A DNA stretch of 64,000 bases from an uncultured Marinilabiliaceae bacterium (GTDB taxonomy: Bacteria > Bacteroidota > Bacteroidia > Bacteroidales > Marinilabiliaceae), in the NCBI GenBank assembly GCA_964521525.1, contig CAZFTD010000001.1, positions 11,630-75,629 on the forward strand, written 5' to 3'. Below are positions 655-41,401 of the stretch, piece by piece; position 1 is the stretch's first letter; each line of letters starts with the position of its first letter. The translations under genes were made by a program, and so were the position numbers. The notes beneath the pieces were generated by a model. It was not told the DNA's origin and did not search any database. It saw only the letters and a program-made list of their open reading frames with translations.

Positions 655-958
655 AGGCCATGGTAGTGCGATTAATAATTATAAACGCCTTAACCTTTAT
701 GGCCATAACAAAAAAACTCTAAGCATATGAAACGAGCATGTGTTATCAGACATAAAAACAATACATCAACATGCGAGTTCCGTCATACCTTTTAAATTAA
801 TTTTATTATGATGAAACGAGCCATGAGGCACTTTTTCTCACCCAAGAGAATCGAAGATCGGCGCAGCCAAGGACTAACTGGCGAGTTCTCCCGATAAATC
901 GGGACAACCTGTTCCGCAGTGCGGAAAGCTATGTGACAATTAAAAATAAAACTTTAGA
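655..958 (+). repeat. Tandem array of the ATGAAACGAG/CGAGTTC structured intergenic repeat (locus A: 3' fragments, a short unit at 727-~805, a long unit at 808-958)
   Basis: Box ATGAAACGAG at 727-736 and 811-820. CGAGTTC at 774-780 and 882-888. Hairpins at 885-908 and 912-926. Clear nucleotide similarity to 41291-41400, 46435-46745 and the reverse complement of 52835-52951. Confidence 0.75.
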
Positions 959-961
959 CAC

Positions 962-2671
962 ATGAAAATAAAACTAAACATTGCTCAAAAACTGATTTAT
1001 GGCTTTGGCCTTATTCTGATTGTGGTATTCCTTAACAGTTTGTTGACACTGTTTACTGTTAACAGAAGTACAAGCCTTAACAACAGGGTAACTGGCATTT
1101 ATACTCCTACCGTTCAATCTCTGGGCGATTTGGGCATGCTTATTACCCAAAGCAAAATGCTTATCCGTAACTGGGTTTTTATCGACAAACAGCCAGGAAC
1201 ACCAGATAAGCTCAGGCTTGTGGAGCTCCATAACACAGATTTCTCTGCCATTAAAAACAGGTTGAACGAATTAACAAAACAGTGGAACAATGAAACCGAC
1301 CAGGAAGCACTTGGTTTAATCTTTCATAAAATTGACTCACTTTTTACCATGCATAAGTACATCATGAATAACCTCAACTCCTTTGATGCTTACGAAGATG
1401 CCTTTATCATGTTTGAAGTGGAAGATATGGTAATGGAAGGTGGAACCATCATAACTCTTACTGATGAAATTTCTGCCAATATTCTTGACCTTTCAACCAA
1501 ATATAACGAAGGCAACAATGTTGCTCTATCAAATATGAGGGGGGCCTTTTCAAGATTAACATGGGTAGTAATAATCATGGGTCTTATCTTGTTCGCCGCC
1601 TCTTTTGCCATCGCCTGGTTGCTTTATTCTTCTATTGTACATCCACTTATTAAGGGTGTTGATTTTGCCAAAGCCATTGGAGCAGGCAATCTGAATGCTA
1701 AAGTTGAAGTGAATCAGGATGATGAAATTGGGGTTTTAGCCAAAGAGTTGAGCAATATGGCTGAAAACTTGAAAAACACCGTGGTAACCATTAAAGATAA
1801 TGCCTTAAACCTTGTTAATTCAAGCGAGTTACTAAAAACCAGTTCTCTTCAGTTATCACGCGGATCGGCCGACCAGGCTGCTTCGGCTGAGGAAGTTTCT
1901 ACTTCTATAGAAGAAATGGTTGCCAATATTGATCAAAATACCGACAACGCTATTCAAACCGAGAAAATTACAGTCGAAACTGCTAAGGATGTTAACGTTG
2001 CAAACCAATTAAGTTCCGAAGCAGCCAAAGCTATGACCGCCATCTCTGAGAAAATATCCATGATTAGCGATATTGCTTTTCAAACCAATATTCTTGCGCT
2101 TAACGCTGCCGTTGAAGCAGCCAGAGCCGGAGAACATGGCCGTGGTTTCTCTGTTGTAGCCGCCGAAGTTCGCAAATTGGCCGAACGAAGCAAAACTGCT
2201 GCTGATGAAATTGTTACACTTGTTAACAAAGGGTTAAAAGTTTCTCAGGAAGCCGGCAACAAAACAAAACTGCTTGTTCCCGATATTGAGAAAACAACTG
2301 TACTGATTAAAGAAATTGCCGCTGCCAGTATGGAACAAAAAACCGGTGCCGACCAGATTAATCTGGCCATGCAGCAATTAAATATGATTACACAGGAAAA
2401 TGCCTCCTCGTCTGACCAGTTAACCCAAAGCTCCGACTTGTTATTGCGATTGGCGCAAAACCTACAGGAAGCTGTTAGCTATTTTACAATAGGTAACGAA
2501 GAAGCTGAAGGCAAAAAACGTTCAGCTGATTCAACCAAAACAGAAACTAAAACGCCGGAGCCTGATAAGCAAAAGACAACTAAAAAAACCACCTCGGCTA
2601 AACAACGCACGGTTCAGGACCTTTCAAATCTTGAAAAAGAATTTGACATGGATAATTATGAAAAGTTTTAA
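962..2671 (+). CDS. Methyl-accepting chemotaxis protein (2 TM segments, periplasmic sensor, HAMP, MCP signalling domain)
   Basis: Signalling hairpin motif [38 protein letters not shown]. Candidate methylation motifs [10 protein letters not shown] and [13 protein letters not shown] segments near residues 10-32 and 200-222. Confidence 0.95.
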
Positions 2672-2692
2672 CGCTTTTTCGTAACCTTTTTA

Positions 2693-3022
2693 ATGCTAAA
2701 ATGTATGACTGAAAACTTTAATATCAATTTTAAAGAAAATAAAGATCAATTAGAAATGGTTTTTAGCGGTCAGTTAACAATTAATTCAATTGCTAAGATA
2801 ACCGAAAGCGTTAAATCTCATTTGAAAAACCCAACCGTGGTTAACATTCAGGTTAAAGACGCAGATAACATTGATCTGACTTTTATTCAATTGTTGCAGG
2901 CAATCAAAAACAGCGGAAAGAAAAAAGGCTTCGACGTCAATGTCTCCTTTTCTGTATCGGACGACATTAAAACCCTGCTTAAAAATGCCGGATTTACAAA
3001 CTATTTAAACGATAAAAACTAA
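2693..3022 (+). CDS. STAS-domain (anti-sigma-antagonist-like) protein
   Basis: About 105 aa with a SpoIIAA-like pattern (...VKDADNIDLTFIQLLQAI...). The start could instead be the ATG at 2705. Confidence 0.6.
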   Translation: MLKCMTENFNINFKENKDQLEMVFSGQLTINSIAKITESVKSHLKNPTVVNIQVKDADNIDLTFIQLLQAIKNSGKKKGFDVNVSFSVSDDIKTLLKNAGFTNYLNDKN

Positions 3023-3036
3023 AACTCTATATTACT

Positions 3037-3402
3037 ATGGCTAAAACCGTTTTAATTGTTGATGACTCCGAAAGTATCCGTGAAGTCGTAAATTTTACTC
3101 TGCAAAACGAAGGGTATGACGTTCTGGTGGGCATAGATGGAGAAGATGCACTCAAATTTTTGGATGGTCGTCACATCGACATTATTATTACCGACTTGCA
3201 CATGCCTAACTTAGATGGGCTGGGTCTCATCAGAAAGGTTCGGGAGATGGATAACTACAAACATATACCCATTCTTTTTCTGACCACTGAATCGCAGGCA
3301 GCGAAAAAAATGGAAGCCAAAGAAGCCGGCGCCACCGGTTGGATTATAAAACCATTTGTACCTGCTAAACTTTTATCAGCTATTTCAAGGGTTATTAGAT
3401 AA
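3037..3402 (+). CDS. cheY: CheY-like single-domain response regulator
   Basis: Receiver motifs: VLIVDDSE, IIITDLHMPNLDG, FLTTES, IIKPF. Confidence 0.9.
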   Translation: MAKTVLIVDDSESIREVVNFTLQNEGYDVLVGIDGEDALKFLDGRHIDIIITDLHMPNLDGLGLIRKVREMDNYKHIPILFLTTESQAAKKMEAKEAGATGWIIKPFVPAKLLSAISRVIR

Positions 3403-3411
3403 TTTAAAGCT

Positions 3412-3750
3412 ATGCTTGAAAATATTAAAAAGCAATTCTACAACAATACCATTAAAGAATTGCTCTTTATAAATGCTAAATTATCTGAAGAATCAATACA
3501 TCCCAACGAAAGTATTTCGCTGGTAAACAGCGTTTTTTCAATTACCCATCAAATTAGCGGTACCGGGCCGATGCTTGGTTTTATGAACACATCAAAGATT
3601 TCAAAGAAAGTTGAAAAAACCTTTTATGAAATAAGAGCAGGCGAAAAAGAACTTACTGCACCCATTATTATGCAAACCAGGCGCGCCCTGGAATCCATAA
3701 TTGACTCCATGAATCAGGAGTTTAACAGCAGTTTGGTTATTTCAGAGTAA
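3412..3750 (+). CDS. Stand-alone Hpt-like phosphotransfer protein
   Basis: THQISGTGPMLGF fits the Hpt motif H-x-(L/I)-(K/S)-G-x-(G/A)-x-x-x-G. The predicted fold is small and helical. It sits directly upstream of cheA. Confidence 0.55.
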   Translation: MLENIKKQFYNNTIKELLFINAKLSEESIHPNESISLVNSVFSITHQISGTGPMLGFMNTSKISKKVEKTFYEIRAGEKELTAPIIMQTRRALESIIDSMNQEFNSSLVISE

Positions 3751-3793
3751 GTGTTTCTGGTTGTATTAATAATGCTATAAAGCTTCACATCTC

Positions 3794-5845
3794 ATGATAG
3801 ATAAGTTTAGAGCGAAGTTTGTTGAAGAGTCCACGGATAATATTCACGATCTGGAAGAAGCGCTGCTCCTTCTGGAAAAGGACATGAGAAATAAAGAACT
3901 TATTGAACGCATTTTCAGGGCCATGCACTCCCTGAAAGGCGGCGGAGCTATGTTTGGCTTTAACCATTTGAGTGAATTTACCCACCATCTCGAAACCATT
4001 TTCGATTATGTTCGTGGCGGAAAACTTCAGGTGAGCACGGAACTTATTTCACTTACATTCTCAGCTATTGACCAAATAAACTTCCTCCTTAAAACCGGAG
4101 ACCTTACCCGTGAAGAAGATTTAGCCGAGCAAAAAGCGTTTATAAAAAAACTGCAATCATTTTTATCAGGATTCGAATCATCCTCTCAAACGTTAGAAAA
4201 AAAGGAATCCCTTTCAGATGTTTCTTCTGCTCCTGAAACCAATGAGAAAACATATCTAATAAGTTTTCTACCACATGAAGATTTGTTGAAAAACGGTACC
4301 AACCCGTTTTATCTGCTGGACGACCTTCATGCTATGGGCAATGCCATTACTCTGGCGTTTGCTCATAAAACACCCTCGCTTGATTTGTTCGAAGTCTCTA
4401 CCAATTATTGTTTTTGGCAGGTAATTTTAAGCTCTGCTGAATCAATTAACGAAATCAGAGATGTTTTTATTTTTGTTGAAGATGAGTGCGAACTTCATAT
4501 TGACCTGATTTCTGAAACTTCAATTGTTAACCGACCCGAAGTAAAAGCCCTGATAGAAAAAGCTTTGCAAACAAACACCCAGCTATCTGTCGACGATTTT
4601 AAACAAAGCGAATGGACCCGAACCGAGGAACAAAAAGATACCGACGATAAAAAGAAAGCATTTTTAAAAGAACACAAAATAGCCAGTATCAGGGTTGCTT
4701 CGCATAAAATTGACGAGTTGGTAACTCTGGTAAGCGAAATGGTTACCATTCAGGCACAATTGTCGTTATATGCCGAAAATAGTGGAGACCCCACTATAAT
4801 GGCGCTTACCGAGAATATCCAGAAGCTTACCCGTCAGTTGCGCGATAACGCTTTCGATGTAAGCCTGATTCCTTTACAAAGCGAATTAATGCGATTTCAA
4901 AGGTTGGTACGCGACCTGTCGAAAGAACAGAAAAAGGATATTGATTTTATAATTGAAGGTGGCGATTTGGAATTGGACAAAAACATTGTAGAGCATTTAA
5001 CCGATCCCCTGCTTCATATTTTGCGAAATTCAATCGACCATGGAATTGAACTGCCACAAGAACGAATTGCAGCCGGCAAATCGCCCAAGGGAACTATAAT
5101 TTTTAAAGCCTACCACTCCGGAGCAAACGTAATTATTGAAATTACCGACGACGGAAAAGGGATTGACCCTGAATTTATTAAACAAAAAGCCGTTAGTAAA
5201 GGAATTATTGAACAGGGAGCAACCCTTGATAAAAAGGAAATTTTTGACCTGCTTTTCATCAGTGGATTCTCAACCCGCGAATCTGTCTCTGATTTGTCTG
5301 GCCGAGGCGTTGGTATGGATGTGGTCAGAAGAAAAATCGCAAACATAAGAGGAGAAGTTTCGTTGGAATCAGAAACCGGCAAAGGAACCATAATTACAAT
5401 TCGTCTGCCACTAACGCTTTCTATTATCGATGGATTATTGGTTAAAGTTGCCAACAATCAATATGTAATTCCTATTTCGGCCATAGAGCAAATTTTCGCT
5501 TTTGACCAATCACAAATGAAAAATACATTCAACAATGTGGTTGTTATCAACAACGAACAAATACCATATATTATACTGCGCAACCTTTTTAACGAACCAA
5601 AACACGATGACGATAAATTCCAGATGGTTTTGATTCGTAGCGAGGAGAAAAAACTAGGAATTATTGTAGATGCTGTAATTGGTGAATACCAAACAGTTGT
5701 AAAACCTTTGGGCCGGTACCTGAAAAAACAGGAAATTATTTCGGGAGCTTCCATTATGGGCGATGGAGCAATTTCCTTAGTAATTGATACCTCACGATTA
5801 TTCCAATCAAGGAGAAGCAGAAAAGCAGCTCACGTTGAAAACTAA
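3794..5845 (+). CDS. cheA: Chemotaxis histidine kinase CheA
   Basis: P1 Hpt motif RAMHSLKGGGAMFGF. HATPase motifs HILRNSIDHGIE, DDGKGID and GRGVGMDVV. C-terminal CheW-like domain. Confidence 0.95.
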   Translation: MIDKFRAKFVEESTDNIHDLEEALLLLEKDMRNKELIERIFRAMHSLKGGGAMFGFNHLSEFTHHLETIFDYVRGGKLQVSTELISLTFSAIDQINFLLKTGDLTREEDLAEQKAFIKKLQSFLSGFESSSQTLEKKESLSDVSSAPETNEKTYLISFLPHEDLLKNGTNPFYLLDDLHAMGNAITLAFAHKTPSLDLFEVSTNYCFWQVILSSAESINEIRDVFIFVEDECELHIDLISETSIVNRPEVKALIEKALQTNTQLSVDDFKQSEWTRTEEQKDTDDKKKAFLKEHKIASIRVASHKIDELVTLVSEMVTIQAQLSLYAENSGDPTIMALTENIQKLTRQLRDNAFDVSLIPLQSELMRFQRLVRDLSKEQKKDIDFIIEGGDLELDKNIVEHLTDPLLHILRNSIDHGIELPQERIAAGKSPKGTIIFKAYHSGANVIIEITDDGKGIDPEFIKQKAVSKGIIEQGATLDKKEIFDLLFISGFSTRESVSDLSGRGVGMDVVRRKIANIRGEVSLESETGKGTIITIRLPLTLSIIDGLLVKVANNQYVIPISAIEQIFAFDQSQMKNTFNNVVVINNEQIPYIILRNLFNEPKHDDDKFQMVLIRSEEKKLGIIVDAVIGEYQTVVKPLGRYLKKQEIISGASIMGDGAISLVIDTSRLFQSRRSRKAAHVEN

Positions 5846-5870
5846 AAGCGCCACCTGAATAAAAGACATT

Positions 5871-6323
5871 ATGGAAAAAGCCAATAAAACCATATTATCA
5901 TTTCAAATCAACCAGAACGAATTTGCCGTTGATGCGCTTCAGGTTGTTCATATTCTCGAAGTTCCACCGCTCATTACCAGAGTACCCAATACATCTGCTT
6001 TTATGAAGGGCGTTATCAACCTGCATGGAAACATTATTCCCGTGGTTGATATGAGATTAATTATGGAAGAAGAGATTGGGATTACAAATGCCGATAATGC
6101 CATAATCGTTATTAGCCCTGCTGACACACAGGACGCGCGCTTTGGCATAATGGTGGATATGGTAAAAGAAGTTTTAGAGATAGATACTGCCAACCTTAAA
6201 GAAACCATTCTGGAAGGGAAAAAAGGATTGATTGAATCATATGAGGGCACCTTATTGTATAATAATACCTTCATTCATATAATTGATATTAATCATTTGG
6301 CCGAAATAGTTGAAAACCAATAG
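5871..6323 (+). CDS. cheW: CheW coupling protein
   Basis: 150 aa with the CheW pattern FAVDALQVVHILEVPPLITRVPNTSAFMKGVINLHGNIIPVVDM. Confidence 0.9.
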   Translation: MEKANKTILSFQINQNEFAVDALQVVHILEVPPLITRVPNTSAFMKGVINLHGNIIPVVDMRLIMEEEIGITNADNAIIVISPADTQDARFGIMVDMVKEVLEIDTANLKETILEGKKGLIESYEGTLLYNNTFIHIIDINHLAEIVENQ

Positions 6324-6337
6324 GATAACCAAAAAAT

Positions 6338-6826
6338 ATGGCTTCTGTACTGAATTCATACCTCACGTTCAAAATCGGAGAAGAAGTTTTTGGCGTAAAC
6401 GTGGCAAAAGTAATGGAGATTCGAGAGTATCAGGCTCCAAAACCACTTCCACAAACCATGCCTTTTGTTTCCGGTGTAATTGAATACCGTGACGAGATTA
6501 TTCCATTAATTGATACTGGCATTAAGTTTGGCATGTCTCCCATCACTATACAATCTGGCACCTGCATCGTTATCCTGCAATTAATCAGCGATACGCTTGG
6601 AAAAACCTATAGAGTTGGTATTTTGGTTGATGCCGTTGCCGATGTATTGGAGTGTGACGATACAAACATGAAAAACATCAACGACGATTATAAGCCCCAT
6701 TATATCTATTCTACCTGCCAAACCGACAGCCATTTGGTTTTTATTCTGAATGCTGATGTGGTTTTCAGTCAGAAAGAAATTATTGGGATGCTTGATATGG
6801 TCAATAAATTAAAAAAACAGGCCTGA
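6338..6826 (+). CDS. cheW: CheW coupling protein (second paralogue)
   Basis: FGVNVAKVMEIREYQAPKPLPQTMPFVSGVIEYRDEIIPLID. Confidence 0.85.
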   Translation: MASVLNSYLTFKIGEEVFGVNVAKVMEIREYQAPKPLPQTMPFVSGVIEYRDEIIPLIDTGIKFGMSPITIQSGTCIVILQLISDTLGKTYRVGILVDAVADVLECDDTNMKNINDDYKPHYIYSTCQTDSHLVFILNADVVFSQKEIIGMLDMVNKLKKQA

Positions 6827-6829
6827 TAA

Positions 6830-7699
6830 ATGGAGAAAACCATAAATACATCGGGAAGCTTCGATTGCTTTAAAGCGGAACTTTCGGAAAGTGATTTCCA
6901 GGTTTTCAGCCGGTTTATATATTCAGAATACGGTATTAAAATGCCGCCCATTAAGCGAATTATGCTTCAAGGGCGGCTGTTGAAAAGAATCAGAGAGCTC
7001 AACATGAGTTCTTATTCTGAATACAAAGAATACTTTTTCAGTAAAGAAGGTCAGGATAAAGAATTACTACAGTTTTTAAACGTAGTAACAACCAATAAAA
7101 CAGATTTTTTCAGGGAACCGGTTCATTTTAATTTTTTAAATGATACCGTGCTTCCTGCTTTCAGAAGTCAAAACACAAGCGGCCAACCGTTTAAGGTTTG
7201 GAGTGCCGGTTGCTCAAGCGGCGAAGAACCATATACCATATCTGTTGTTCTTAACGAATTTGAACGGCTCAATCCTAACTTTAGGTTTGATATTCTTGGA
7301 TCTGACATCTCAACCCAAATGCTTGAAAAAGCGGCCAAAGGCATTTACCAGGCTAACAAGCTTGTTACAGTACCAATGGAACTGAAGAAACGATATTTTC
7401 TAAAAAGCAAAGATCCCCATAACCAAACAGTTAGGGTGCACCCGCTTTTGCAAAAAAATATTCGGTTAACCTATCTTAATTTGATGGATAACCTATACTC
7501 TATAAAAGAAACATTCGATGTGATTTTCTGTCGTAATGTGTTAATCTATTTCGACAGACAAACACAGGAAAGAGTAATTAACAAGCTTTGTTTGCAACTT
7601 AAACCGGGAGGTTATTTTTTTATCGGACATTCCGAGTCGCTGTCGGGCATGAATGTACCTCTTGAACACATCAAACCAACCATATTTAAAAAACTGTAA
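6830..7699 (+). CDS. cheR: CheR chemotaxis protein methyltransferase
   Basis: TTNKTDFFREPVHF, VWSAGCSSGEEPYT, GSDIS...AAKGIY, IFCRNVLIYFD. Confidence 0.92.
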   Translation: MEKTINTSGSFDCFKAELSESDFQVFSRFIYSEYGIKMPPIKRIMLQGRLLKRIRELNMSSYSEYKEYFFSKEGQDKELLQFLNVVTTNKTDFFREPVHFNFLNDTVLPAFRSQNTSGQPFKVWSAGCSSGEEPYTISVVLNEFERLNPNFRFDILGSDISTQMLEKAAKGIYQANKLVTVPMELKKRYFLKSKDPHNQTVRVHPLLQKNIRLTYLNLMDNLYSIKETFDVIFCRNVLIYFDRQTQERVINKLCLQLKPGGYFFIGHSESLSGMNVPLEHIKPTIFKKL

Positions 7700-7734
7700 G
7701 TATAACAATCAAGACGAAATAACACAGCAAAACT

Positions 7735-8634
7735 ATGACGAACATTTCTGACAAACAGCTTTTGAAAGAGTTAAAAACCAAACTCGAAGAGCGTAAGAAA
7801 TATGAGGAAGAGATTAGCCTGCTATCACAGGAGCTTCAAACCGTTACTCAACGTTTTAAAGAATCGGAAGCATTAAAAAGCCACTTTATCTCAAATATAT
7901 CCAATGAAATAGTAAACCCTTTTACGTCCATTCTTGGTTTATCCAAATCTATTCTTTCAGTTGAGAAAAACGACTGGAAAAAAGTGGTAAGCATGGTTGC
8001 ATTAATCCATAGCGAAGCCTTTAATCTCGACTTCCAGCTGAAAAACATTTTTGTGGCCGCAAAAATTGAAGCCGGCGAAGTGGTTCCAAACATTGCAAAG
8101 GTTAACGTTCGCAACATTGTTCAAACCATGATCGATTCATTCGGCCTTGTGGCACGCAAAATGGCCATCGACATCGAGTTTCAATTCAACATTGAATACG
8201 GATTTGGCAAAAACTTCTATTTTAAAACCGATAGCGAAAAATTAAAGCTTATACTGAGTAACCTCATGAATAATGCTTTAAAATACAGCTATAAGGATAG
8301 CAAAGTTATAATTACCGTTTGGGTAGATGAAGATATTCTAAATATTTCGGTACAAGACTTTGGCACAGGCATTTCTGAAAAAAATCAAAAAGTTATCTTC
8401 GAACGCTTCAAGCGACTGGATTCAGGCATTAACTCGATTAACCGTGGACACGGACTTGGGCTATCCATAACAAAAGCCTTACTGGATGTTATGGGCGGTA
8501 CCATTGAAATCGAAAGTAAAAAAGGAGAAGGGTCAACCTTCTATGTCAGAATTCCGGAAGCAAAAAATATTGTTGAAGGGTTCAGTGGTGAAGGAAATGA
8601 TATTTTCTTCGATGGAGATGATGAGATTTTTTAA
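7735..8634 (+). CDS. Soluble histidine-kinase paralogue (coiled coil, DHp-like and HATPase domains) with Asn in place of the phospho-acceptor His
   Basis: H-box region KSHFISNISNEIVNPFTSILG versus the canonical FLQNMSHEIRTPLNAVIG seen in the 55067-58780 kinase. N-box NLMNNALKYS, G1 DFGTGI and G2 GHGLGLSI are intact. Confidence 0.8.
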   Translation: MTNISDKQLLKELKTKLEERKKYEEEISLLSQELQTVTQRFKESEALKSHFISNISNEIVNPFTSILGLSKSILSVEKNDWKKVVSMVALIHSEAFNLDFQLKNIFVAAKIEAGEVVPNIAKVNVRNIVQTMIDSFGLVARKMAIDIEFQFNIEYGFGKNFYFKTDSEKLKLILSNLMNNALKYSYKDSKVIITVWVDEDILNISVQDFGTGISEKNQKVIFERFKRLDSGINSINRGHGLGLSITKALLDVMGGTIEIESKKGEGSTFYVRIPEAKNIVEGFSGEGNDIFFDGDDEIF

Positions 8635-8645
8635 GAAAGCATTAG

Positions 8646-9116
8646 ATGGACCAATATTTACAACATTTTTTGTATCCTTCTACGCTGTTTGCCAGTAAAG
8701 AACCTTACATGGTTAAAACCATTCTGGGCTCATGCGTGGCAATATGTCTGTACGATCCGGTACTGAAAGTTGGAGGCATCAATCATTATATGCTACCCAA
8801 CTGGAACGGTAACGATCTGGCATCGCCAAAGTACGGAAATATTGCCATTGAAAAGCTGATTGAACGGATGGTGTTTTATGGATGTAAAAAAGAAAACCTA
8901 CAGGCGAAAATATTCGGCGGGGGCGACCTCATTGCTGCCGACAGAAGCGCCATGATGATAGGAGAGCGCAATATTCGGGTAGCCAGGTTAATTCTGGAAG
9001 AAAAGAACATTCCCGTAGTTGCCTCAAGTACCGGAGGACGAAAAGGCCGTAAAATATTGTTTTTCACCGATACTGGCGAGGTTCGGCATAAGTTTCTGGA
9101 TAAAAAGGAGTATTAG
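8646..9116 (+). CDS. cheD: CheD chemoreceptor glutamine deamidase
   Basis: 156 aa. [13 protein letters not shown] (catalytic Cys region) and KIFGGG. Confidence 0.88.
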
Positions 9117-9135
9117 ATACCTGGCAAGTTCAGCT

Positions 9136-10215
9136 ATGGAGAAAAAAATCAGGGTATTAGTTGTTGATGATTCGGCAGTGGTTAGGCAGAGCCTCACCAC
9201 CATTCTGGAGTCGGACCCCCAGATTGAAGTTATGGGCACTGCCGCCGATCCGCTTATTGCCGTAAAAAAAATAATGAAAGAAGTCCCTGATGTAATTACC
9301 CTTGATATTGAAATGCCGCGAATGGATGGACTCACCTTCCTTCGTAAAATAATGTCGCAACACCCTATCCCGGTTGTCGTTATTTCATCGTTAACAAGCC
9401 AGGGAACCGAAGTTGCCATGAAGGCTCTTGAATATGGCGCTTCCGAAATTATTGGGAAGCCAGCCATGAATGCTGCACAGTTTTTTAACGAATCAAAAAT
9501 TATACTGTGCGATGCAGTTAAAGCAGCCTCTCAGGCTAAACTCTCTCGTCTGAAAATTGCTTCCTCACCTACAGTTGAGTTGGTTAAACCCAAGTATTCG
9601 GCCGACATAATTCTTGAGAAAGCCTCACTAAAAAGCAGGATCGTTGATACTGAAAAAATAATAGTATTGGGAGCTTCCACCGGCGGCACCGAAGCCATAC
9701 GTCTGTTATTACGTAATTTGCCTTCACGTATGCCCGGAATTGCCATTGTACAGCATATGCCCGAAGGATTTACCAAATCATTTGCCAACAGCCTTAATGC
9801 CAACTCAGAACTGGAAGTAAAAGAAGCCGAAGATGGCGACCGGCTCTATCAGGGTCGTGTGCTCATTGCTCCCGGAAATCATCATATGTTGCTTAAAAGA
9901 GTCGGAAAAGAATATTCAGTGGAAGTGAAGGAAGGCCCGCTGGTTAACCGACACCGCCCATCGGTTGATGTGCTTTTCCGCTCTGCCGCCAGGTACGCGG
10001 GCCAAAATGCCACTGGTATTTTGCTTACCGGTATGGGTGCCGATGGTGCAAAAGGGTTGTTAGAATTGAAAGAAGCTGGCGCCAATACTATTGCACAGGA
10101 CCAGCAAACATCCGTTGTTTTTGGTATGCCCAAGGAGGCTATTAAATTAGGTGCGGCTGATGAAATTCTAGGTATAGATGCCATTGTTCCATTCCTGATT
10201 AAAAAATTTCACTAA
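9136..10215 (+). CDS. cheB: CheB receiver-methylesterase
   Basis: Start reassigned to the ATG at 9136 ([13 protein letters not shown]), because the 9019 start would overlap cheD by about 100 nt. REC domain plus [24 protein letters not shown] and [11 protein letters not shown]. Confidence 0.92.
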
Positions 10216-10680
10216 CCTTTTCATTATATTTCCGTATTATTACAGACTTATTGTTTTACAAAAAAATATTTAAAAACGTTTTAAATGTTTGATTAGAATA
10301 CCGAATGCTAAATTAATTTGACTCTAATCATTTAAACATAAAATGCCATAAACAGTTGTTATTATGATATTTATATAACTTTTACGACACCAAATTCTCA
10401 AAATTAAAGGGGAAATTGTTTTAGATACTGTTTAAATTTAGATGTAAGATTGTTAGAGAAAATTTAGAAGTTTTTATAGAAGTTTTGGCATCTTTACCAG
10501 ACTTATCTATCCGTCAAATAATCTTAAATCTAAACATCTTAATAAAAATTTCAATATTAAATTTAAACAGGATATAAGTTGTTTATTGTTGGTAAAAGAT
10601 ATATAAAGCAAGAAAGTTAAATCCTTTGTTCATTTTAACCACCAGGCTGTTATCAAAAAACCTTAATAAATTTTTTAAGG

Positions 10681-12558
10681 ATGAAAAAAATTAAAATAAA
10701 ATCGCTGTTAACAAAATATAGTTTTCAAGGAGCCGTGCTAGGGGTTATTGTTTCCCTTATAATATTTCTTTTAAGCATGGACTCCCCTATTTATAAAACA
10801 ACCAACAGCTCGTTTATCGATCTGTTTACGCTTTTTCCTGCCTTATGGGCTGTGTTGCTGATACCCGTTGTTGGCGCCCTGTCTGGATATTTTGTTGCCA
10901 GGCGGTTTTCGTCCATTATTAAAAAGCAATCTAATAAATTAAAAAAAGAAGCCAGTCGTACCGAAATGGTTCTTTCGTTTATCGACAATTTAAGACAGGA
11001 CAAATTAGACGAGCCCATCAACGTCAAAGATAAAAACGATTCACTTACACAAGCCCTTTTAAACTTAAGGGGCTTTATGGTTCAAAGCAAGCAGGAGCAA
11101 CAACAGCGCCGGATTGAAGAGGAACAAAGAAACTGGGTTACGCAGGGGCTGGCTCAATTTGGTGAAATTCTGCGTCAAAATACAGATAACCTCGAAGAGC
11201 TTTCATACAATATTATTCGCTACCTTGTTACCTACCTCAAAGTTAATCAGGGTGGCGTTTTTCTGGTTAATCAAACCAAAGCCGGTGAAAAATATCTTGA
11301 GATGACCGCCTGCGTTGCCTATGACCGTAAAAAATTTGCCGATAAAGTTATTAATTGGGGTGAAGGCCTTTTAGGCCGCTGTGCTCTGGAAAAAGAAACC
11401 ATCTTTATAACCGATGTTCCTAACAACTATATAACCATCACATCCGGGCTGGGTGACTCCAACCCGGGAACTCTTCTTCTGGTTCCTTTAAAAACCAATG
11501 AAGAGTTGTTTGGGGTTATTGAGCTTGCTTCATTTCAAATACTTCAGAAATTTGAAATTGAATTTGTTGAAAAAACAGCTGAAAGCATTGCCTCTACCAT
11601 TGCCACGGTAAAAAACAACATTCAAACCACAAAATTGCTTCGGGAAACACAAATTCAGGCCGAAAAAATGTCGCAACAGGAAGAAGAACTGCGTCAAAAC
11701 CTTGAAGAAATGCGTGCCACTCAGGAGGAAAGCGATCGACGGGAAATTGAACGTAAGGGCATTCTGGATGCCATTGACCATGCTGCCATCTCTTGTGAAT
11801 TTGATACCACCGGAACACTTTTATCGGTTAACGAGAATTTCCTGAAAACTTTTAAATACAAGCCGGAGGAGGTTGAAGGGCAGCACCTTAAGATATTCTT
11901 TTTTAAAGATGACGTAAGCGAATTAGACCGCATATTGGCCGACCTTTCTAACGGTCATAACTTCCGTGGACGCGTGCGCAGAAGAACCAAAGCCGGCGAA
12001 GAAATTTACCTGTTAACCACCTATAGTCCTGTAATTGACCACAATGGCGAAATTTTGAAAATTCTTAGCCTCGAAAACGATGTAACAGAACAGGTTAAAA
12101 TGGAAGAGGCCCTCAAACATGCCAAAGAGGAACTCGGTTTACTGCTCGAGGAAGCACGAAACGAAGTGAAGGAACAGTTCAAGGAAATTGAATCAGTTAA
12201 AATAAGAAACGAAAAAACCCTTGAAGGAGCACTTGATGCCATTATTACAACAAACAGGGAGGGGGTTCTTGAATTCTTTAATGCTGCTGCCGAAAAACTA
12301 TGGGGTTATGACCGCAGCGAGGTGCTGGGTCAAAATGTATCAATGCTCTTCTCAAAAGAAACAGCCAAAACCAACATGTTTGTTTCTGGATTTATTTCAA
12401 GCGATGGACAAAAAATTGTGGGCGAGCGCCGTGAAATACCAATCCGCAACAAATATGGCGAAGATATACCCGTTCTATTTTTGCTTTCAGAAGCAAAAGT
12501 AGGCGACGACCATTCATTCACTGCTTTTATACAAAATGTTGAAGTAGAATTATTTTAA
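10681..12558 (+). CDS. Membrane sensor: 2 TM, coiled coil, GAF, E/Q-rich coiled coil, PAS, PAS; no output domain
   Basis: TM segments near residues 15-32 and 45-72. GAF signature ITSGLGDSNPGTLLLVPLKTNEELFGVIELASF. Two PAS-like blocks. The protein ends right after the second PAS. Confidence 0.85.
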   Translation: MKKIKIKSLLTKYSFQGAVLGVIVSLIIFLLSMDSPIYKTTNSSFIDLFTLFPALWAVLLIPVVGALSGYFVARRFSSIIKKQSNKLKKEASRTEMVLSFIDNLRQDKLDEPINVKDKNDSLTQALLNLRGFMVQSKQEQQQRRIEEEQRNWVTQGLAQFGEILRQNTDNLEELSYNIIRYLVTYLKVNQGGVFLVNQTKAGEKYLEMTACVAYDRKKFADKVINWGEGLLGRCALEKETIFITDVPNNYITITSGLGDSNPGTLLLVPLKTNEELFGVIELASFQILQKFEIEFVEKTAESIASTIATVKNNIQTTKLLRETQIQAEKMSQQEEELRQNLEEMRATQEESDRREIERKGILDAIDHAAISCEFDTTGTLLSVNENFLKTFKYKPEEVEGQHLKIFFFKDDVSELDRILADLSNGHNFRGRVRRRTKAGEEIYLLTTYSPVIDHNGEILKILSLENDVTEQVKMEEALKHAKEELGLLLEEARNEVKEQFKEIESVKIRNEKTLEGALDAIITTNREGVLEFFNAAAEKLWGYDRSEVLGQNVSMLFSKETAKTNMFVSGFISSDGQKIVGERREIPIRNKYGEDIPVLFLLSEAKVGDDHSFTAFIQNVEVELF

Positions 12559-12573
12559 TAACACCCCTTAAGC

Positions 12574-13422
12574 ATGCAGAATAGCGGAGAGGATATTACA
12601 TTTAAAGAATATCTGCAAATACTTAAGGATTCCTCACCTTACGATTTCAGTGAATATTCCGATAATTCGATATACAGGCGCATCCATAAGGTTATGCGCG
12701 ATTACCGGCTGAGCTTAAACGAATTAGTGGCAAAAACAAAATCAGACCAGGATTTTGTAGAGCAAATTGTTGAGGCAATTACAGTTAATACCACCGAACT
12801 ATTTCGTGACCCCTCGGTTTGGGTTTACATATTGCAAAAGCTGCTACCTCAATTTAAAAATAAACCTAACATAAATATTTGGCACGCAGGATGTTCATCA
12901 GGTCAGGAGGTTTATTCCAACCTAATTTTACTCAATCATCTGGGACTTTTAAAACAATCGACTGTTTATGCTACCGACATAAGTCAAAAAGTACTCGACC
13001 AAGCTAAAAAAGGAATATATAAGTATCGGTTTAATTTAAATTACATCGAAAACTTTAATCAGGTTTTGGGTGTTAACGAACCCAAAGTTGATTTTTCAAA
13101 GTATTTCGATATCAATGAATCAGAAGACAAAATTGTGGTTAAAGAATTCTTAAGAACATTACCTAAATTTATAAAGCATGATCTGGTTCAGGAAAAACTG
13201 CCGTTCTATAATAAATTTGACATCATTTTTTGCCGAAACGTATTGATTTATTTTAATCCGGACTTACAGTCGCGCATCATTCAACGATTTCACGATAATC
13301 TTTTTCCTGGTGGGTCTATGATTTTAGGCACGCACGAAGCCATAACCGGATTCTTTAAAACCAAGTTCGTTAAAAACGGTCCGGTATATTCAAAAAGCAA
13401 CGTATTTCATTTTAAATATTAA
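12574..13422 (+). CDS. CheR-type SAM-dependent methyltransferase (paralogue 2)
   Basis: TTELFRDPSVW, IWHAGCSSGQEVYS, ATDIS...AKKGIY, IFCRNVLIYFN. Confidence 0.88.
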   Translation: MQNSGEDITFKEYLQILKDSSPYDFSEYSDNSIYRRIHKVMRDYRLSLNELVAKTKSDQDFVEQIVEAITVNTTELFRDPSVWVYILQKLLPQFKNKPNINIWHAGCSSGQEVYSNLILLNHLGLLKQSTVYATDISQKVLDQAKKGIYKYRFNLNYIENFNQVLGVNEPKVDFSKYFDINESEDKIVVKEFLRTLPKFIKHDLVQEKLPFYNKFDIIFCRNVLIYFNPDLQSRIIQRFHDNLFPGGSMILGTHEAITGFFKTKFVKNGPVYSKSNVFHFKY

Positions 13423-13424
13423 AA

Positions 13425-14249
13425 GTGAACTTCAGTATAACTGATATCAAAGAATTGACCTTTTCCATGTTGGGCTATCCCAATATGGACTATACCAACT
13501 ATTCTTTATCGTTTTTAAAAAGAAGGTTGGCAATAGTTTTCACAAGCTTAAACATTAGGCGAAAAGATCAATTTCTTGAAATGCTGAAGAAAAAGGATTT
13601 CAGAGATCAGGTAATCACACGCATGTTGGTTGATAATACTGAGATGTTCAGAGACCCGGCTTTTTGGCGTATGCTAAGAGATAAAATTGTAAAGGATTTG
13701 CCCTCCAATAGCGCCATATGGTTTCCATGCGAAAGCAGTGGAGAGGAAGTTTATTCATTATCCATTATTCTTCACGAGCAAAATCTTGCATCCCGATTTA
13801 AATTAATTTGCAGCAACCCATCCATTGAAAAAGGTAATGCCATTAACCAAGGTAAGTTAAACGCAAAGCTCTTCGATTTAAATCACACAAATTACAGGCG
13901 TTTAGAAGAAAATGAATTATTCGATTCATATTTCACTATACAGAACGGTCATCTGTTTGTTTGCGAAAAATTAAGAGAAAATGTAAATTGTGTACACGGA
14001 AGTATTTCTGACACCATACCTTCAGGAGTTGTGTCGCTCATATTATTTAGAAATGTATCCATATATTATAATCATCGTCAGGCAGCCTCTGTTTTTGATA
14101 TATTATATGAAAAACTAATGCCGGGAGGTTTTCTCGTTATAGGAGTTAAGGAAAAACTCCCTGAAAAAATTGCCGACAAAATGATAGTAATCGACGAAAC
14201 AGAAAAAATTTACAAAAAACCTTTGCCGCGAACCAATGGATTATATTAA
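13425..14249 (+). CDS. Divergent CheR-like protein (paralogue 3, GTG start)
   Basis: NTEMFRDPAFW is retained, but IWFPCESSGEEVYS, CSNPS (in place of the (T/S)DIS motif: ATDIS / GSDIS), INQGKL (in place of KGIY) and LFRNVSIYYN have diverged. Confidence 0.75.
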   Translation: MNFSITDIKELTFSMLGYPNMDYTNYSLSFLKRRLAIVFTSLNIRRKDQFLEMLKKKDFRDQVITRMLVDNTEMFRDPAFWRMLRDKIVKDLPSNSAIWFPCESSGEEVYSLSIILHEQNLASRFKLICSNPSIEKGNAINQGKLNAKLFDLNHTNYRRLEENELFDSYFTIQNGHLFVCEKLRENVNCVHGSISDTIPSGVVSLILFRNVSIYYNHRQAASVFDILYEKLMPGGFLVIGVKEKLPEKIADKMIVIDETEKIYKKPLPRTNGLY

Positions 14250-14820
14250 ATCAGACAGAAATTTTAAACTCATAGTTTTGGGTGGTTCTGCAGGAAGTTT
14301 TTCTGTAGTATCAAAAATTTTGTCTCAATTAAAACCCGATTTTAAAATACCTTTGATTCTTTCGCTGCATCGGTTAAAACACCTACGGTCGGGGTTGGTG
14401 GAAAGCCTCAGTTATAAATCGGCCATTGAAATCATTGAACCCTGCGATAAAGACAAAATCAATAACAACTTTGCATATCTGGCCCCATCGAACTACCACC
14501 TGTTTGTTGAATTCGATGGAACACTGTCGTTATCAACAGAAGAGTCGAACAACCATAGCCGGCCATCTATCGACTATACTTTATCGTCGGCGGCCTATGC
14601 CTACCGTGATAAAACATTGGGAATTCTGCTTACCGGAGCCAATCGCGATGGGGCTCAGGGGCTAAAAGATATTGCCGATCACAACGGATATACCATTGTG
14701 CAGGATCCTAAAACCTGTGATATTGATACCATGCCACAGTCTGCATTACGGTTGTTCACACCCAACCAGATTCTGACACCCGACCAAATTGTGCAATTTT
14801 TAAATAGCCTACCACAATGA
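14236..14820 (+). CDS. Receiver-less CheB-type methylesterase
   Basis: 194 aa, catalytic domain only. LIVLGGSAGSF, SLHRLKH, PSIDYTLSSAA, LLTGANRDGAQG. Overlaps the preceding gene by 14 nt. Confidence 0.85.
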   Translation: MDYIKSDRNFKLIVLGGSAGSFSVVSKILSQLKPDFKIPLILSLHRLKHLRSGLVESLSYKSAIEIIEPCDKDKINNNFAYLAPSNYHLFVEFDGTLSLSTEESNNHSRPSIDYTLSSAAYAYRDKTLGILLTGANRDGAQGLKDIADHNGYTIVQDPKTCDIDTMPQSALRLFTPNQILTPDQIVQFLNSLPQ

Positions 14821-15590
14821 ACATACAACTACTTAAAAAAAAATCGCTGATGTTTTGGCTTTTTTTATTGGCAGGCATTATTTTTCTGCTGTCAATAACT
14901 CGTTATTTTCTTTTCGAGGTGAACGCCGAATCGTGGTTTTATTATTTTGAAGTGACATCGTTCTTTTTGCTGATAGTCATGTTAATTCTGGCCGAAAAAC
15001 TTTATCATAACTATAACAATCAAATAATCCGCCAAAAAGAAAAGTATGAAAGCGAAATCAACGAATTGCTTGAAAAAAATGTGTCGTTAACAAGTAAAAT
15101 TTCTTTCTACGAAAGAGCTGAATTCGAAGCTTATGAGCTTAGTGAAAAACAGGATAAATTATTAAGCAGCATTGTAAACATGGGGGGGGCATCCAATCAC
15201 AGCCGAAGTTTTCTCAGTTTGTTTTCAGATGCAACACAGGCCATGTCGGCAATTCTTTACACAGAAACACAACCCTCGGGCAATTTTATCGTACAAGAAA
15301 CTTACGGTATTCCCGAAGATTACACCCCAGCTCCGTTTTCTATATCTGAAGGATTAAATGGTCAGGTTGTTGCCGAAGGAAAACCATTGGTAATAGAGGA
15401 AATACCAGAAGATTATTTTAATGTGCAATCGGGATTGGGAAATTCCAGACCACGATTTCTCTATTTTTTACCGGTTATAAAAGATAAAACGTGTGTGGCT
15501 TTAATTGAATTAGCTACCTTTAAAAAAACTGATTTAGAAAAAATGTGGCACCATGTTTCGGCCAAAATAATTGAAAAAGGATTATTATAA
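14817..15590 (+). CDS. Membrane protein: 2 TM, coiled coil, GAF
   Basis: ATGA start/stop overlap with the preceding gene. GAF signature DYFNVQSGLGNSRPRFLYFLPVIKDKTCVALIELATF is paralogous to those of the 10681 and 15600 proteins. Confidence 0.8.
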   Translation: MNIQLLKKKSLMFWLFLLAGIIFLLSITRYFLFEVNAESWFYYFEVTSFFLLIVMLILAEKLYHNYNNQIIRQKEKYESEINELLEKNVSLTSKISFYERAEFEAYELSEKQDKLLSSIVNMGGASNHSRSFLSLFSDATQAMSAILYTETQPSGNFIVQETYGIPEDYTPAPFSISEGLNGQVVAEGKPLVIEEIPEDYFNVQSGLGNSRPRFLYFLPVIKDKTCVALIELATFKKTDLEKMWHHVSAKIIEKGLL

Positions 15591-15599
15591 CAGAACGAA

Positions 15600-18212: not shown

Positions 18213-18254
18213 TTATATTTACGTAAATTTAGACACTATTTTGAAATAAACGTC

Positions 18255-18818
18255 ATGGAAAAAGAGAACCAAGGGTTTCTGGAGTTTGCTTATCAACTCT
18301 ACAAAACCATGAAAACCAATGAAATAAATTTGGTTTACGAAGGAGAAGTCACTCAGGAAATAACAAAAACCTTTACTTCTCTTACCGAAAAAAGCCTATC
18401 TAAAAGTGCGGAATCAAACACCGTGCAGAAAAAGGTATTTAATGTAATGGTAGAATGTTTACAAAACATCAGTAAACATGCCGATTCGTTAAACGATGAA
18501 GACGAAGAACGCAGAGGCATTGTAATGGTGAGTAAAGGGGAAGACAGTTACAACATCATTACCGGCAACGTTATTAAAAATGAAAAAGTTCCCGAGCTGA
18601 AAAAAAGCCTCGAGCTCATCAACAGTCTCGATAAAGAAGGTCTCTCAATCCTGTTTAAACAACAGATAAAAGAAACAACTATTTCGGATAAAGGAGGCGC
18701 CGGGCTTGGATTAATTGATATTGCAAAAAAGACAGGAAGTAAATTAACTTACCAGTTTAAAGAGCTTAACGAGAATGTATCCTTTTTCATTTTAACATCT
18801 ACCATTAAGAGAAACTGA
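18255..18818 (+). CDS. SiaB-like (GHKL-fold) Ser/Thr protein kinase
   Basis: N-box-like VMVECLQNISKHA and G-box-like DKGGAGLGLIDIAKK. Size and position match SiaB-family proteins, which sit between the PP2C and the DUF1987 partner. Confidence 0.7.
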   Translation: MEKENQGFLEFAYQLYKTMKTNEINLVYEGEVTQEITKTFTSLTEKSLSKSAESNTVQKKVFNVMVECLQNISKHADSLNDEDEERRGIVMVSKGEDSYNIITGNVIKNEKVPELKKSLELINSLDKEGLSILFKQQIKETTISDKGGAGLGLIDIAKKTGSKLTYQFKELNENVSFFILTSTIKRN

Positions 18819-18832
18819 TAAAATTAAGCACC

Positions 18833-19213
18833 ATGAACAATATAAACATCAAAGGTACCGATGATACCCCTTCTGTAATTCTTGACAAGGATAAGGGTTT
18901 GTTTGAAATTTCCGGAAGATCCTTACCGGAGGATGTAAATATGTTTTATGAACAAATTCTGGACTGGATTGACGAATATGCCAAAAGTCCCAACGACAGA
19001 ACAGAATTCAACTTTAAACTGGAGTATTTTAACACGGCTTCTTCAAAAGTCATTCTCGATATTCTTCTTAAATTTGAGGAGATTGTAGAAAATGGAAAAG
19101 AGGTGGTAATTAAATGGCATTACCATGAAGATGAGGAAGATATGCTGGAAGCTGGCGAAGAATATGCCGATATAGTAGAAATTCCTTTTGATTACGTGGT
19201 TTATAATCAATAA
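18833..19213 (+). CDS. DUF1987 / SiaC-like partner-switch phosphoprotein
   Basis: 126 aa. IKGTDDTPSVILDKDKGLFEISGRSLPED...FNFKLEYFNTASSK...VIKWHYHEDEEDMLEAGEEY matches my memory of DUF1987 family hallmarks. Confidence 0.7.
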   Translation: MNNINIKGTDDTPSVILDKDKGLFEISGRSLPEDVNMFYEQILDWIDEYAKSPNDRTEFNFKLEYFNTASSKVILDILLKFEEIVENGKEVVIKWHYHEDEEDMLEAGEEYADIVEIPFDYVVYNQ

Positions 19214-23282: not shown

Positions 23283-23393
23283 TTTTGCATAAATATCCAT
23301 GCAAAAAGTTAGAAGATAAAATTGTGAAATTAAAGCCGGCTGTTACATGTAACCGCTTGTTTTATTTTACCTTAACAAACAAATTTTGACAAT

Positions 23394-23846
23394 ATGAAAA
23401 AAGTATTATTGGGCTTAATACTTGTACTTTCAATAAGTTCTTTCAGCGCCTCGGCACAACAGTGTGATGAATCGCTTAAGAAACAGGCTTTGAAAGAAAT
23501 GGGAGACAGCCAATACATTAAAGACTTTTCCATTGATTTGCGAAAAGCCAAAAAAGATATGAAAACAGGCTTTGTAAAATTCTCTGTGATTTTGCACAGT
23601 CGCAACCAATATAGATTTACAGTTGTTAACCACCCCGGTAATCCCGAAGAGGTTGTGATGCAATTGTTTGATGGTGACCGTTTGCTAATCAGCAATTTTG
23701 AAGGTGGAAAAATATCAAAAGCCCCTGATTTTGTTTGCCGTACCACCAAGGTTTACCACCTCACCTTTTCGTTCCGAAGTGGTGAAGAGGGTTGTGCCGA
23801 GGCTGTAATTTCTTTAGTGAAACAGTATGCAGAAGGTGAATTATAA
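23394..23846 (+). CDS. Small secreted protein of unknown function
   Basis: Signal peptide MKKVLLGLILVLSISSFSASA. I recognise no family. Confidence 0.6.
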   Translation: MKKVLLGLILVLSISSFSASAQQCDESLKKQALKEMGDSQYIKDFSIDLRKAKKDMKTGFVKFSVILHSRNQYRFTVVNHPGNPEEVVMQLFDGDRLLISNFEGGKISKAPDFVCRTTKVYHLTFSFRSGEEGCAEAVISLVKQYAEGEL

Positions 23847-36002: not shown

Positions 36003-36153
36003 CCGATAATAGTTATTTTTCAATATGATTTATAATTTTGAATTTCCTGATTTTTTGTAAAACTTGTAAGCTATAATTTTTAAATTAAGCTGTGTTGTTT
36101 TACTTAAATTATACAAATAATTAACTTTAGCTCAATAAACTAATTATTTTCTG

Positions 36154-41285: not shown

Positions 41286-41290
41286 CAAGG

Positions 41291-41400
41291 ATGAAACGAG
41301 TTATGAGAATGAGTTTTCACAACGGAGTATTACTATTGTAGCGAGTTCTCCCGATTAATCGGGACTGGCTATATGGCCGTTAAAAATCAAATTATAAACA
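41291..41400 (+). repeat. Single short unit of the ATGAAACGAG/CGAGTTC repeat (locus B)
   Basis: ATGAAACGAG at 41291. GCGAGTTCTCCCGATTAATCGGGAC at 41341-41365, with the palindrome TCCCGATTAATCGGGA at 41349-41364. The 3' end AAAAATCAAATTATAAACA resembles 46548-46569. Confidence 0.75.
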
Positions 41401-41401
41401 G

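Follow-up and report, generated by a model that had tools for sequence, protein, structure and literature searches.

Several classes of small bacterial element offer points of comparison for a family of repeat units that we describe here from a 64,000-nt stretch of DNA of an uncultured Marinilabiliaceae bacterium (the window), in which two such units are stacked directly upstream of a chemotaxis gene encoding a methyl-accepting chemotaxis protein (MCP). Pneumococcal BOX elements are modular (boxA-boxB(n)-boxC), structured, and located near gene starts; the enzyme that mobilises them is not known. Integron attC sites contain R'' and R' boxes (RYYYAAC and GTTRRRY), with crossover between the G and the TT of the latter. 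Insertion sequences (IS) of the IS200/IS605 type and their gene-less derivatives, palindrome-associated transposable elements (PATEs), have a left-flank motif (transposon-adjacent motif, TAM), a right-end motif (transposon-encoded motif, TEM), and an internal "DNA guide" that pairs (bioRxiv 10.1101/2023.03.14.532601). Repetitive extragenic palindromes (REPs) and their bacterial interspersed mosaic elements (BIMEs), which go with the REP-associated tyrosine transposase (RAYT, TnpAREP), occur in many intergenic copies as tandem stacks and as mosaics of modules with GC-rich hairpins (PMC2817692 and PMC8266576). Miniature inverted-repeat transposable elements (MITEs), such as Correia/CREE, RUP, and the Porphyromonas gingivalis MITE with a minisatellite (PMC4596501), are small, abundant, noncoding, found in untranslated regions (UTRs), and able to alter expression; they have terminal inverted repeats and make short duplications of non-specific or TA targets.

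The units resemble each of these in part. Like BOX elements they are modular, structured, and near gene starts, although BOX shares no sequence with them and is linked neither to a fixed hexamer nor to start codons. Their first helix (P1; the helices are described below) is built like a folded attC site: AAC/GTT stands for the "R box," a spacer stays unpaired, another box is paired, the tip varies, and structure is kept over sequence. However, the unit sequences ATGAAAC and GTTC(C/T)CC miss the attC consensus, the boundaries lie at ATGAAA, and there is neither a cassette array nor an integrase. With REP/BIMEs the units have in common their abundance, intergenic position, tandem stacking, and mosaic of hairpin modules, but the unit core is an 88-nt, multi-helix structure rather than a palindrome of 20-40 nt, the hairpin is dispensable, and the units lie at gene 5' ends without alternating in orientation. 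They are as small, abundant, and noncoding as MITEs, and have neither the inverted repeats nor the variable duplication. The likeness to PATEs extends to the absence of terminal inverted repeats (CGAGCCATG and TTATAAACAG are not complementary), oriented insertion beside a short fixed left-flank motif, a similar motif at the right end that the element may encode, an internal segment that pairs with the boundary, folded ends on one strand, and gene-less copies of ~100 nt. Unlike IS200/IS605 elements, the units have no partner TnpA/TnpB with matching ends in the ~1 Mb of fragments collected, their P4 is a long-range 6-bp helix and not a subterminal hairpin, their target ATGAA(A) coincides with start codons, and their right-boundary pairing varies among subfamilies. 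The units thus satisfy only part of the IS200/IS605 definition. In kind, they are non-autonomous bacterial intergenic repeats that match neither MITEs, REP/BIMEs, and attC sites nor any Rfam family.

We conclude that the units are very probably copies of a family of small, non-autonomous mobile elements, one for which the literature searched holds no description. Their unusual properties are strict targeting of ATGAAA, which coincides with start codons, a replacement start region that they supply themselves, and strong covariation in what is a multi-copy selfish element. A conspicuous "structured leader" can in this way be explained without regulation, which advises caution in taking covariation within multi-copy elements as evidence of host function.

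Occupied and empty sites

The window contains six units at four loci: 727-961, 41291-41401, 46435-46747, and, on the minus strand, 52951-52816. All begin with ATGAAACGA and end with ...ACA(C/G)ATGAA(A/T), a terminal motif overlooked in the initial annotation, which had presented tandem structured repeats as the leader of the chemotaxis operon. ATGAAACGAR occurs exactly six times (727, 811, 41291, 46435, 46571, and 52951 on the minus strand), each time within these loci, and an unfiltered covariance-model scan of the 64 kb returns the six and no other convincing copy. A weak match at 23324-23399 (E=1.8) resembles an ordinary A-rich start region and is not counted. The second-hairpin motif CTGTTCCGNAGTGCGGAAAG, allowing up to 3 mismatches, has 3 matches in the window versus 0.02 expected, and GAGTTCNCCCGRT, allowing up to 2, has 10 versus 3.4. 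The strings and coordinates quoted in the initial annotation are all present, and exact motif, alignment, and unfiltered model scan confirm the recurrence at four loci that it reported. It was also correct in seeing structured, oriented, multi-copy repeats without a transposase or terminal inverted repeats, every locus pointing to the next downstream gene. At three of the four loci, the terminal ATGAA(A/T) provides the start codon of that gene (962, MCP; 41402, DUF4292; 46748, adenine deaminase).

The reading of the units as a dedicated chemotaxis leader, by contrast, is not supported. The contig L068 encodes an MCP that is 97% identical to that of the window in protein and 93.5% in DNA. Its leader reads ...aaaaaactctaagcat followed at once by ATGAAAATAAAACTAAAC, with ...ctaagcat directly joined to ATGAAAATAAAAC; at this point the window's otherwise collinear leader is longer by the 235 bases of two units (727-961), flanked on either side by ATGAAA. 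The window minus 727-961 equals the L068 sequence, with 1 mismatch in the 30 nt upstream of the junction and 24 of 24 matches downstream. What stands at this MCP start codon varies among other relatives: two different units in L071 (a 79% relative), relics only in L070 (84%), and none in Alkalitalea saponilacus.

Three more start codons can be compared. The ATGAAA that starts mnmG (44513-44518) is an empty target in the window and in L063, where the sequence runs ...cgATGAAATTT. In L061 it is filled by a 91-nt unit, the sequence being ...cgATGAAA, 85 nt, and then ATGAAATTT. Upstream of the adenine deaminase gene, L061 and L063 each have a single unit, orthologous to the older unit of the window (46435-46570). 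The window has, in addition, an extra long unit (46571-46747, with the P3 and second hairpins), placed where the older unit meets the gene, at ACAC/ATGAA; the gene starts with ATGAAT at 46748. This extra unit is absent from L061 and L063 and belongs to a subfamily shared with L012 and L032 of another genome. Finally, the spacer between a TPR gene and the DUF4292 gene is filled by a single unit (41291-41401; 111 bits with covariance model R1), directly followed by the ATGAAT that starts the DUF4292 gene (41402-41407). The site is also filled in L061 and L063, and is empty in L065, L066, and L067 (52-54% identity), which have a stop codon, 4-5 nt, and an ATG. Here the unit splits tightly coupled operon genes, turning a spacer of 4-5 nt into one of 116 nt.

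Unit presence differs between relatives whose orthologous proteins are 86-97% identical. On this comparative sequence evidence, presence and absence exactly at start codons in four orthologous comparisons show that the units are mobile, and that tandem stacks such as the chemotaxis leader are built by repeated insertion at the regenerated ATGAAA. The initial annotation had reasoned that a clear match to a known IS or MITE with target-site duplications would make the repeat an ordinary mobile-element relic. Mobility is clear and a duplication-like ATGAAA is present, while no known IS or MITE matches.

Anatomy and fold of the unit

The family was sampled from GTDB representative genomes, scanned with a degenerate pattern of the P3 hairpin, and from metagenomes, scanned with a pattern that omits this hairpin and so gives a hairpin-independent sample. 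Two covariance models, R1 and R2, were run over 0.5-0.8 Mb of the collected DNA. In the hairpin-independent sample, the basic unit measures 88 nt, to which ATGAAA is added; its consensus is ATGAAA CGAGCCATGAGAATTACTTCTCACACAGGAGAATGATTATTGGCGAGTTC CATCTG ACAATTAAAAAACAAATTATAAA CAG ATGAAA. Between the ATGAAA motifs that bound both sides lie, in order, CGAGCCATG, a hairpin, CACAGGAGnATGATTATTGGCGAGTTC, CATCTG, an A-rich stretch, and CAG. P1 is the pairing of AAC-GA-GCCA with TGGC-GA-GTT, with tandem G·A inside the helix; the CGAG boxes singled out in the initial annotation are present and are explained as the two strands of this one helix. P2 is a hairpin immediately inside P1, and its sequence varies between copies while its pairing is kept (stems GAGAG/CTCTC, GTGAA/TTCAC, GTCGAA/TTCGAC, CCCGAT/ATCGGG, and others). 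P4 pairs CATCTG with CAGATG, start codon included; it has 5-6 bp, spans a ~25-nt loop, and covaries (CATGTG/CACATG, ATACG/CGTAT, ATCCG/CGGAT). The triplets found at the 5' end of units include ACG and CTG as variants.

In MAFFT alignments that were not fitted to structure, 90-92% of cells are paired, versus 21-41% when the partners are slid by 1-3 columns, and double-sided changes number 22-31 versus 8-12 in shuffles (0/500 as high). By these measures P1, P2, and P4 covary, and the alignment fitted to the covariance model agrees on the helices. Folding of single sequences recovers P1, P3, and P4 in several units, with z-scores of 0 to -4.

Two further hairpins, P3 (CCCGATAAATCGGG) and a second hairpin (TTCCGCnnnGCGGAA), are both optional. 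The two terminal hairpins of the long unit described in the initial annotation are present where it placed them, as dispensable modules and not as part of the unit core. P3 is missing in 34 of the 35 metagenome units with parsable ends, and one subfamily has copies with and without it (L039 at 398 versus 6324). The P3 slot, between GAGTTC and CATCTG, holds other hairpins in L099, L108, and L111; the module of P3 and second hairpin is reversed inside units of L026 and L029, and P3 takes the place of P2 in L030. In L018 (1445-2300; Neomarinimicrobiota SCKK01000067), the hairpin GAGTTCCCCCGATAAATCGGGGC, identical to the optional P3 module, comes after each member of a tandem pair of GIY-YIG nuclease genes (PF01541), with a tRNA-like sequence close by, and the P3 hairpin with the flanks GAGTTC...CAGGCT is also found in L056, an Ignavibacteria metagenome-assembled genome (MAG). 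P3 may be a separately mobile or a widely convergent module. L054 (~1976 and 2374, minus strand) holds another repeat family, which opens with CTGAAACGAGTTCC, that is, the "AAC...GTT" core of P1 with nothing inside; one of its copies has the CCCGATAAATCGGG hairpin and one does not.

Both forms of the unit stand in the chemotaxis leader. Unit 1 (727-810, plus strand) is the short form without P3; it starts with ATGAAACGAG, matches model R2 (E=0.002), has AAC-GA-GCATG / CATGC-GA-GTT as its P1, and shows P1 and P4 in its minimum free energy (MFE) fold. Unit 2 (811-961, plus strand) is the long form (R1, E=3e-10), with P1 at 815-824/879-887, the optional P3 at 889-904, the optional second hairpin TTCCGCAGTGCGGAA at 912-926, and P4 at 931-935/959-963, which extends into the start codon. 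Its 3' boundary repeat, ATGAAA at 962-967, is the start codon and second codon of the 569-residue MCP gene. The "3' fragments" that the initial annotation saw before these units are real: relic a (655-686) and relic b (695-726) are degenerate 3' halves of older units. Relic a aligns to the 3' half of unit 46435 with a local score of 32 against a shuffle maximum of 30 (0/500 shuffles as high), and relic b, aligned over 695-725 to the 3' half of unit 41291, is equalled in 3/500 shuffles and ends ...ctaagcat directly before the insertion point. Both occur as well in the "empty" L068. The minus-strand unit (52816-52951) runs from its 5' end at 52951 to a terminal ATGAAA at 52821-52816, where no gene begins. 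The endonuclease I gene, read in the same direction, follows 400 nt downstream, and the unit lies upstream of that gene's promoter candidates.

The initial annotation had suggested a covariance model and an Rfam search. The models found copies in related genomes and metagenomes; Rfam gave no match in the window at the gathering threshold, and permissive searches gave none in 41200-46800 at E up to 1 and, in 500-1100 at E up to 10, matches at chance level only. A self-cleaving ribozyme of the hammerhead kind was considered by comparing GAAAC...GUU by eye and was rejected, there being no CUGANGA and no Rfam ribozyme match.

Target site, movement, and rival explanations

The terminal ATGAAA is kept even where no gene follows, and must therefore belong to the element or its target rather than to the gene. 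With the elements masked, the window has 14 ATGAA sites at gene starts, 21 at other intergenic positions, and 206 in coding sequence; for ATGAAA the numbers are 5, 6, and 75. If insertions into coding sequence are purged, the expected share of gene starts among the survivors is 40-45%. In a sample of mixed age, 24 of 50 units end on the ATG of a long open reading frame (ORF); in a sample of young, near-identical metagenome units, 25 of 33 do. Target sequence and purifying selection explain most of the start-codon pattern, and the single orientation follows from the non-palindromic target. Beyond ATGAAA the flanks of the targets have nothing in common, which leaves no place for a programmable guide of the IS110 type (bridge or seek RNA, with a DEDD recombinase), and no recombinase was seen. 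Several 5' flanks end in ...ATAAACAC, resembling the 3' end of the element itself. The duplication-like direct repeat is always the same sequence, ATGAAA. At the adenine deaminase insertion, ATGAAA became ATGAAT, and the same T is found in the related copy L012; this case, which concerns one base only, suggests that the element carries its right motif.

Once inserted, copies decay nearly neutrally. Compared among the window, L061, and L063, orthologous units show 73-87% identity in ungapped columns, compared with 67-79% for third codon positions of the adjacent genes; gaps take up another 4-46 columns, and both P3 and the 5' motif have been lost in places. Such drift, close to the synonymous rate and rich in indels, shows no sign of host-level constraint and is a further point against a dedicated leader. 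Because the copies decay locus by locus, we take the covariation to reflect a constraint on source copies, whose fold serves propagation, and not regulation of the individual host genes. The ORF that begins at the 5' ATG has 4-51 codons, is spread over the three frames (21:14:10), and ends before or at the ATG of the gene; lacking a constant length, a preferred frame, or a conserved peptide, it was rejected as a conserved upstream ORF or small protein. In 52 of 63 units, every frame of the A-rich 3' part contains a stop, and no TAnnTTTG was found on the sense strand inside units. The genes downstream (MCP, DUF4292, adenine deaminase, MnmG, endonuclease I) are housekeeping genes unrelated to one another. 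A candidate Bacteroidetes-type promoter lies at 406-433 on the plus strand (TTTG at 406 and TACATTTG at 426, found as TAnnTTTG with an upstream TTTG, a consensus match only). The repeat stack lies between it and the MCP start, and is thus probably transcribed as a 5' UTR. For the MCP gene, folding and ORF predictions give a short upstream ORF that begins where initiation used to occur, an A-rich spacer newly placed before the start codon, and a weak P4 over that codon, effects that are likely incidental.

The element inserts in one orientation at ATGAA(A), a common combination of start and second codon. Insertions within coding sequence would be lost, so that about half or more of the survivors stand exactly on start codons, where the gene retains an intact ATGAA(A/T) start. 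Upstream of this regenerated start the element brings its own A-rich, stop-laden spacer, probably a translation initiation region. In Bacteroidia, initiation does not rely on Shine-Dalgarno pairing. The covarying helices would be kept because source copies need the fold to move, presumably as a folded, single-stranded intermediate handled in trans by an enzyme encoded elsewhere. Any effect on the host (a 5' UTR gained, a short upstream ORF added, weak P4 pairing with the start codon) would probably be incidental. The niche of such a mobile element would be unusually precise and benign, the start being regenerated and the A-rich spacer supplied upstream of it.

Given mobility, the geometry best fits "peel and paste" in the style of IS200/IS605, an assignment to which we would give somewhat less than even odds. 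IS200-like Y1 genes (MANTYTQ...HIH...YIMNQE) are present on two unit-bearing contigs, L051 (3721-4110, minus strand) and L108 (972-1449, plus strand), flanked by short hairpins of their own, GTCCC-GATA-GGGAC and GGTGCAGCGCACC. A RAYT-like gene in L058 has other hairpins at its flanks and no ATGAAA ends. GC skew in the window gives no readable direction of replication. A bolder reading, which we think doubtful, is that of a new kind of mobile element whose target is in effect the start of translation, a ~90-nt folded single strand of RNA or DNA that homes to ATGAAA at gene starts and brings a replacement start codon along with the spacer before it. Its mover would be either an unrecognised enzyme or a Y1/TnpB system with the unit as guide-RNA scaffold and the downstream gene start as guide. 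If this were true, the element could occupy essential genes without harm.

Several observations weigh against a mobile element of the kind proposed. Pfam searches of 37 ORFs in the window detected no transposase, recombinase, or reverse transcriptase. The ~1 Mb of sampled DNA, which consists of fragments, contained no cargo-bearing copy and no solo end (5' without 3', or the reverse), and the protein screens for Y1 and TnpB, crude motif screens, yielded no TnpB-like ORF. The ends of the L051 and L108 Y1 genes are unlike the units and carry no ATGAAA. Within a unit, the end structures are dissimilar (P1/P2 on the left, P4 on the right), P2 is variable, and P3 is optional, unlike in IS200/IS605 elements. 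The ATGAAA at both junctions is compatible with a true 6-bp duplication as well as with a left-flank motif plus an element-encoded right motif. In the stems, G·U exceeds A·C weakly (26 versus 16), which does not separate RNA from single-stranded DNA. Finally, young copies lie at real gene starts in ~76% of cases, compared with the 40-45% expected from site counts. This excess hints at a target longer than ATGAAA, or at preference or selection for start regions, and leaves room for a host benefit.

One rival reading takes the units for a conserved cis-regulatory RNA (a riboswitch-like leader, a thermometer, or a protein-binding 5' UTR element) that would control translation, the start codon being sequestered in P4. 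The covarying helices, the pairing of P4 with the start codon in single-sequence MFE folds, the 5' UTR position in the orientation of the genes, and the surplus of young copies at true gene starts all agree with such a role. However, the genes served would be functionally unrelated, relatives with 86-97% identical proteins differ in having the unit at all, and orthologous copies decay almost neutrally with large indels. Add the hundreds of copies per genome obtained by extrapolation, a P4 of just 5-6 bp over its ~25-nt loop, and the lack of an Rfam family, and a regulatory RNA becomes quite improbable. Still harder to credit are independent small-RNA or small-protein (MKR...) genes duplicated around the genome. 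The units do open with ATG AAA CGA, and in Roseimarinus sediminis a -7 box, TAGATTTG, lies ~35 nt upstream of two of them, but the upstream ORF of 4-51 codons has no conserved frame or peptide, the 5' triplet can be ACG or CTG, no terminator follows the units, and no promoter-like box lies inside them.

Two familiar kinds of mobile repeat can be set against the same evidence. A classical MITE, the deletion derivative of an IS with a DDE transposase, would account for small size, high copy number, the ATGAAA direct repeat at the ends, and the tandem or nested arrangements. Yet such an element should end in inverted repeats and be flanked by a true target-site duplication, whereas the unit begins CGAGCCATG... 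and ends ...TTATAAACAG, keeps one strict orientation relative to a non-palindromic target, and has a "duplication" of invariant sequence; we regard a MITE as very unlikely. We find it no easier to accept a mosaic of the REP/BIME type, in which the CCCGATAAATCGGG hairpin is a REP moved by a RAYT/Y1 transposase and the rest is linker. The hairpin is modular, with several positions and both orientations within units (L026, L029, L030), it is found alone in other phyla, and Y1 genes lie on unit-bearing contigs, but the hairpin is missing from the basic unit that was recently active (and from 34 of the 35 parsed metagenome units), the units caught inserting are hairpin-less, and the Y1 and RAYT genes have different hairpins at their flanks. 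The P3 add-on itself may have a REP-type origin.

Distribution and neighbouring features

Marinilabiliales genomes and metagenomes hold many copies of this family, which occurs in marine Bacteroidia and is confined to one lineage. The scan of GTDB representative genomes gave 54 pattern matches, of which ~40 are in Marinilabiliaceae, Prolixibacteraceae, or "Bacteroidales" MAGs and in the isolate Roseimarinus sediminis (Marinilabiliales), with the full unit present. The remainder are mostly lone hairpins in other phyla; four stray ones, three in Pyrinomonadaceae and one in Avisuccinivibrio, lie in coding sequence and, read by eye, encode a serine-protease active-site motif. The metagenome scan added 51 loci. 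The covariance models gave 70 matches for R1 (E<1) and 85 for R2 (E<0.01, 819 kb), and extrapolation from 6 units per 64 kb gives hundreds of copies per genome. Nineteen distinct loci within 0-8 mismatches of one 94-nt consensus indicate recent activity. Searches of the literature by sequence string and by topic found no description of this repeat family, and the sole sequence match, an E. coli metY primer, is a coincidence.

Elements of this kind rewrite 5' UTRs and break short-read assemblies. MCP genes identical to that of the window were found on ENA and Logan metagenome contigs, the closest isolates by MCP being Alkalitalea and Alkaliflexus (72% identity). Two of the Logan contigs with the identical gene, L003 and L006, end inside unit 2 (window ~872-878), consistent with a repeat that collapses assemblies. 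The isolate R. sediminis DSM 28824 is a tractable organism in which to find the mover of repeats without inverted repeats and to measure how a transposon-delivered 5' UTR affects translation. Its contig L039 has two paralogous repeats of ~250 nt (330-580 and 6260-6530), each with the Bacteroidetes -7 box TAGATTTG, a unit, and a 35-residue ORF that has conserved ends (MNIPxYSK...HKIMMPMEK) and no Pfam match.

Other features lie outside the units. In L061, the spacer between nadA and a response regulator gene (2520-2700) holds an extra insert of ~240 nt with a GTCCCGGTTTATCGGGA hairpin; neither the window (36003-36153) nor L063 contains this insert. The chemotaxis cluster of the window (962-19213) has STAS and HATPase_c_2 (anti-sigma-like) genes between its che genes, followed by a second CheR/CheB pair, a GAF/PAS-SpoIIE phosphatase, DUF6272, and SiaC; it looks like a chemosensory pathway that feeds a partner-switch module rather than motility. 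Directly after the mnmG stop codon lies a perfect palindrome, GTTCCACGTGGAAC (46393-46406), which is found at the same place in L061, L063, and L066 and, unlike the adjoining units, is kept down to relatives of 52% identity.

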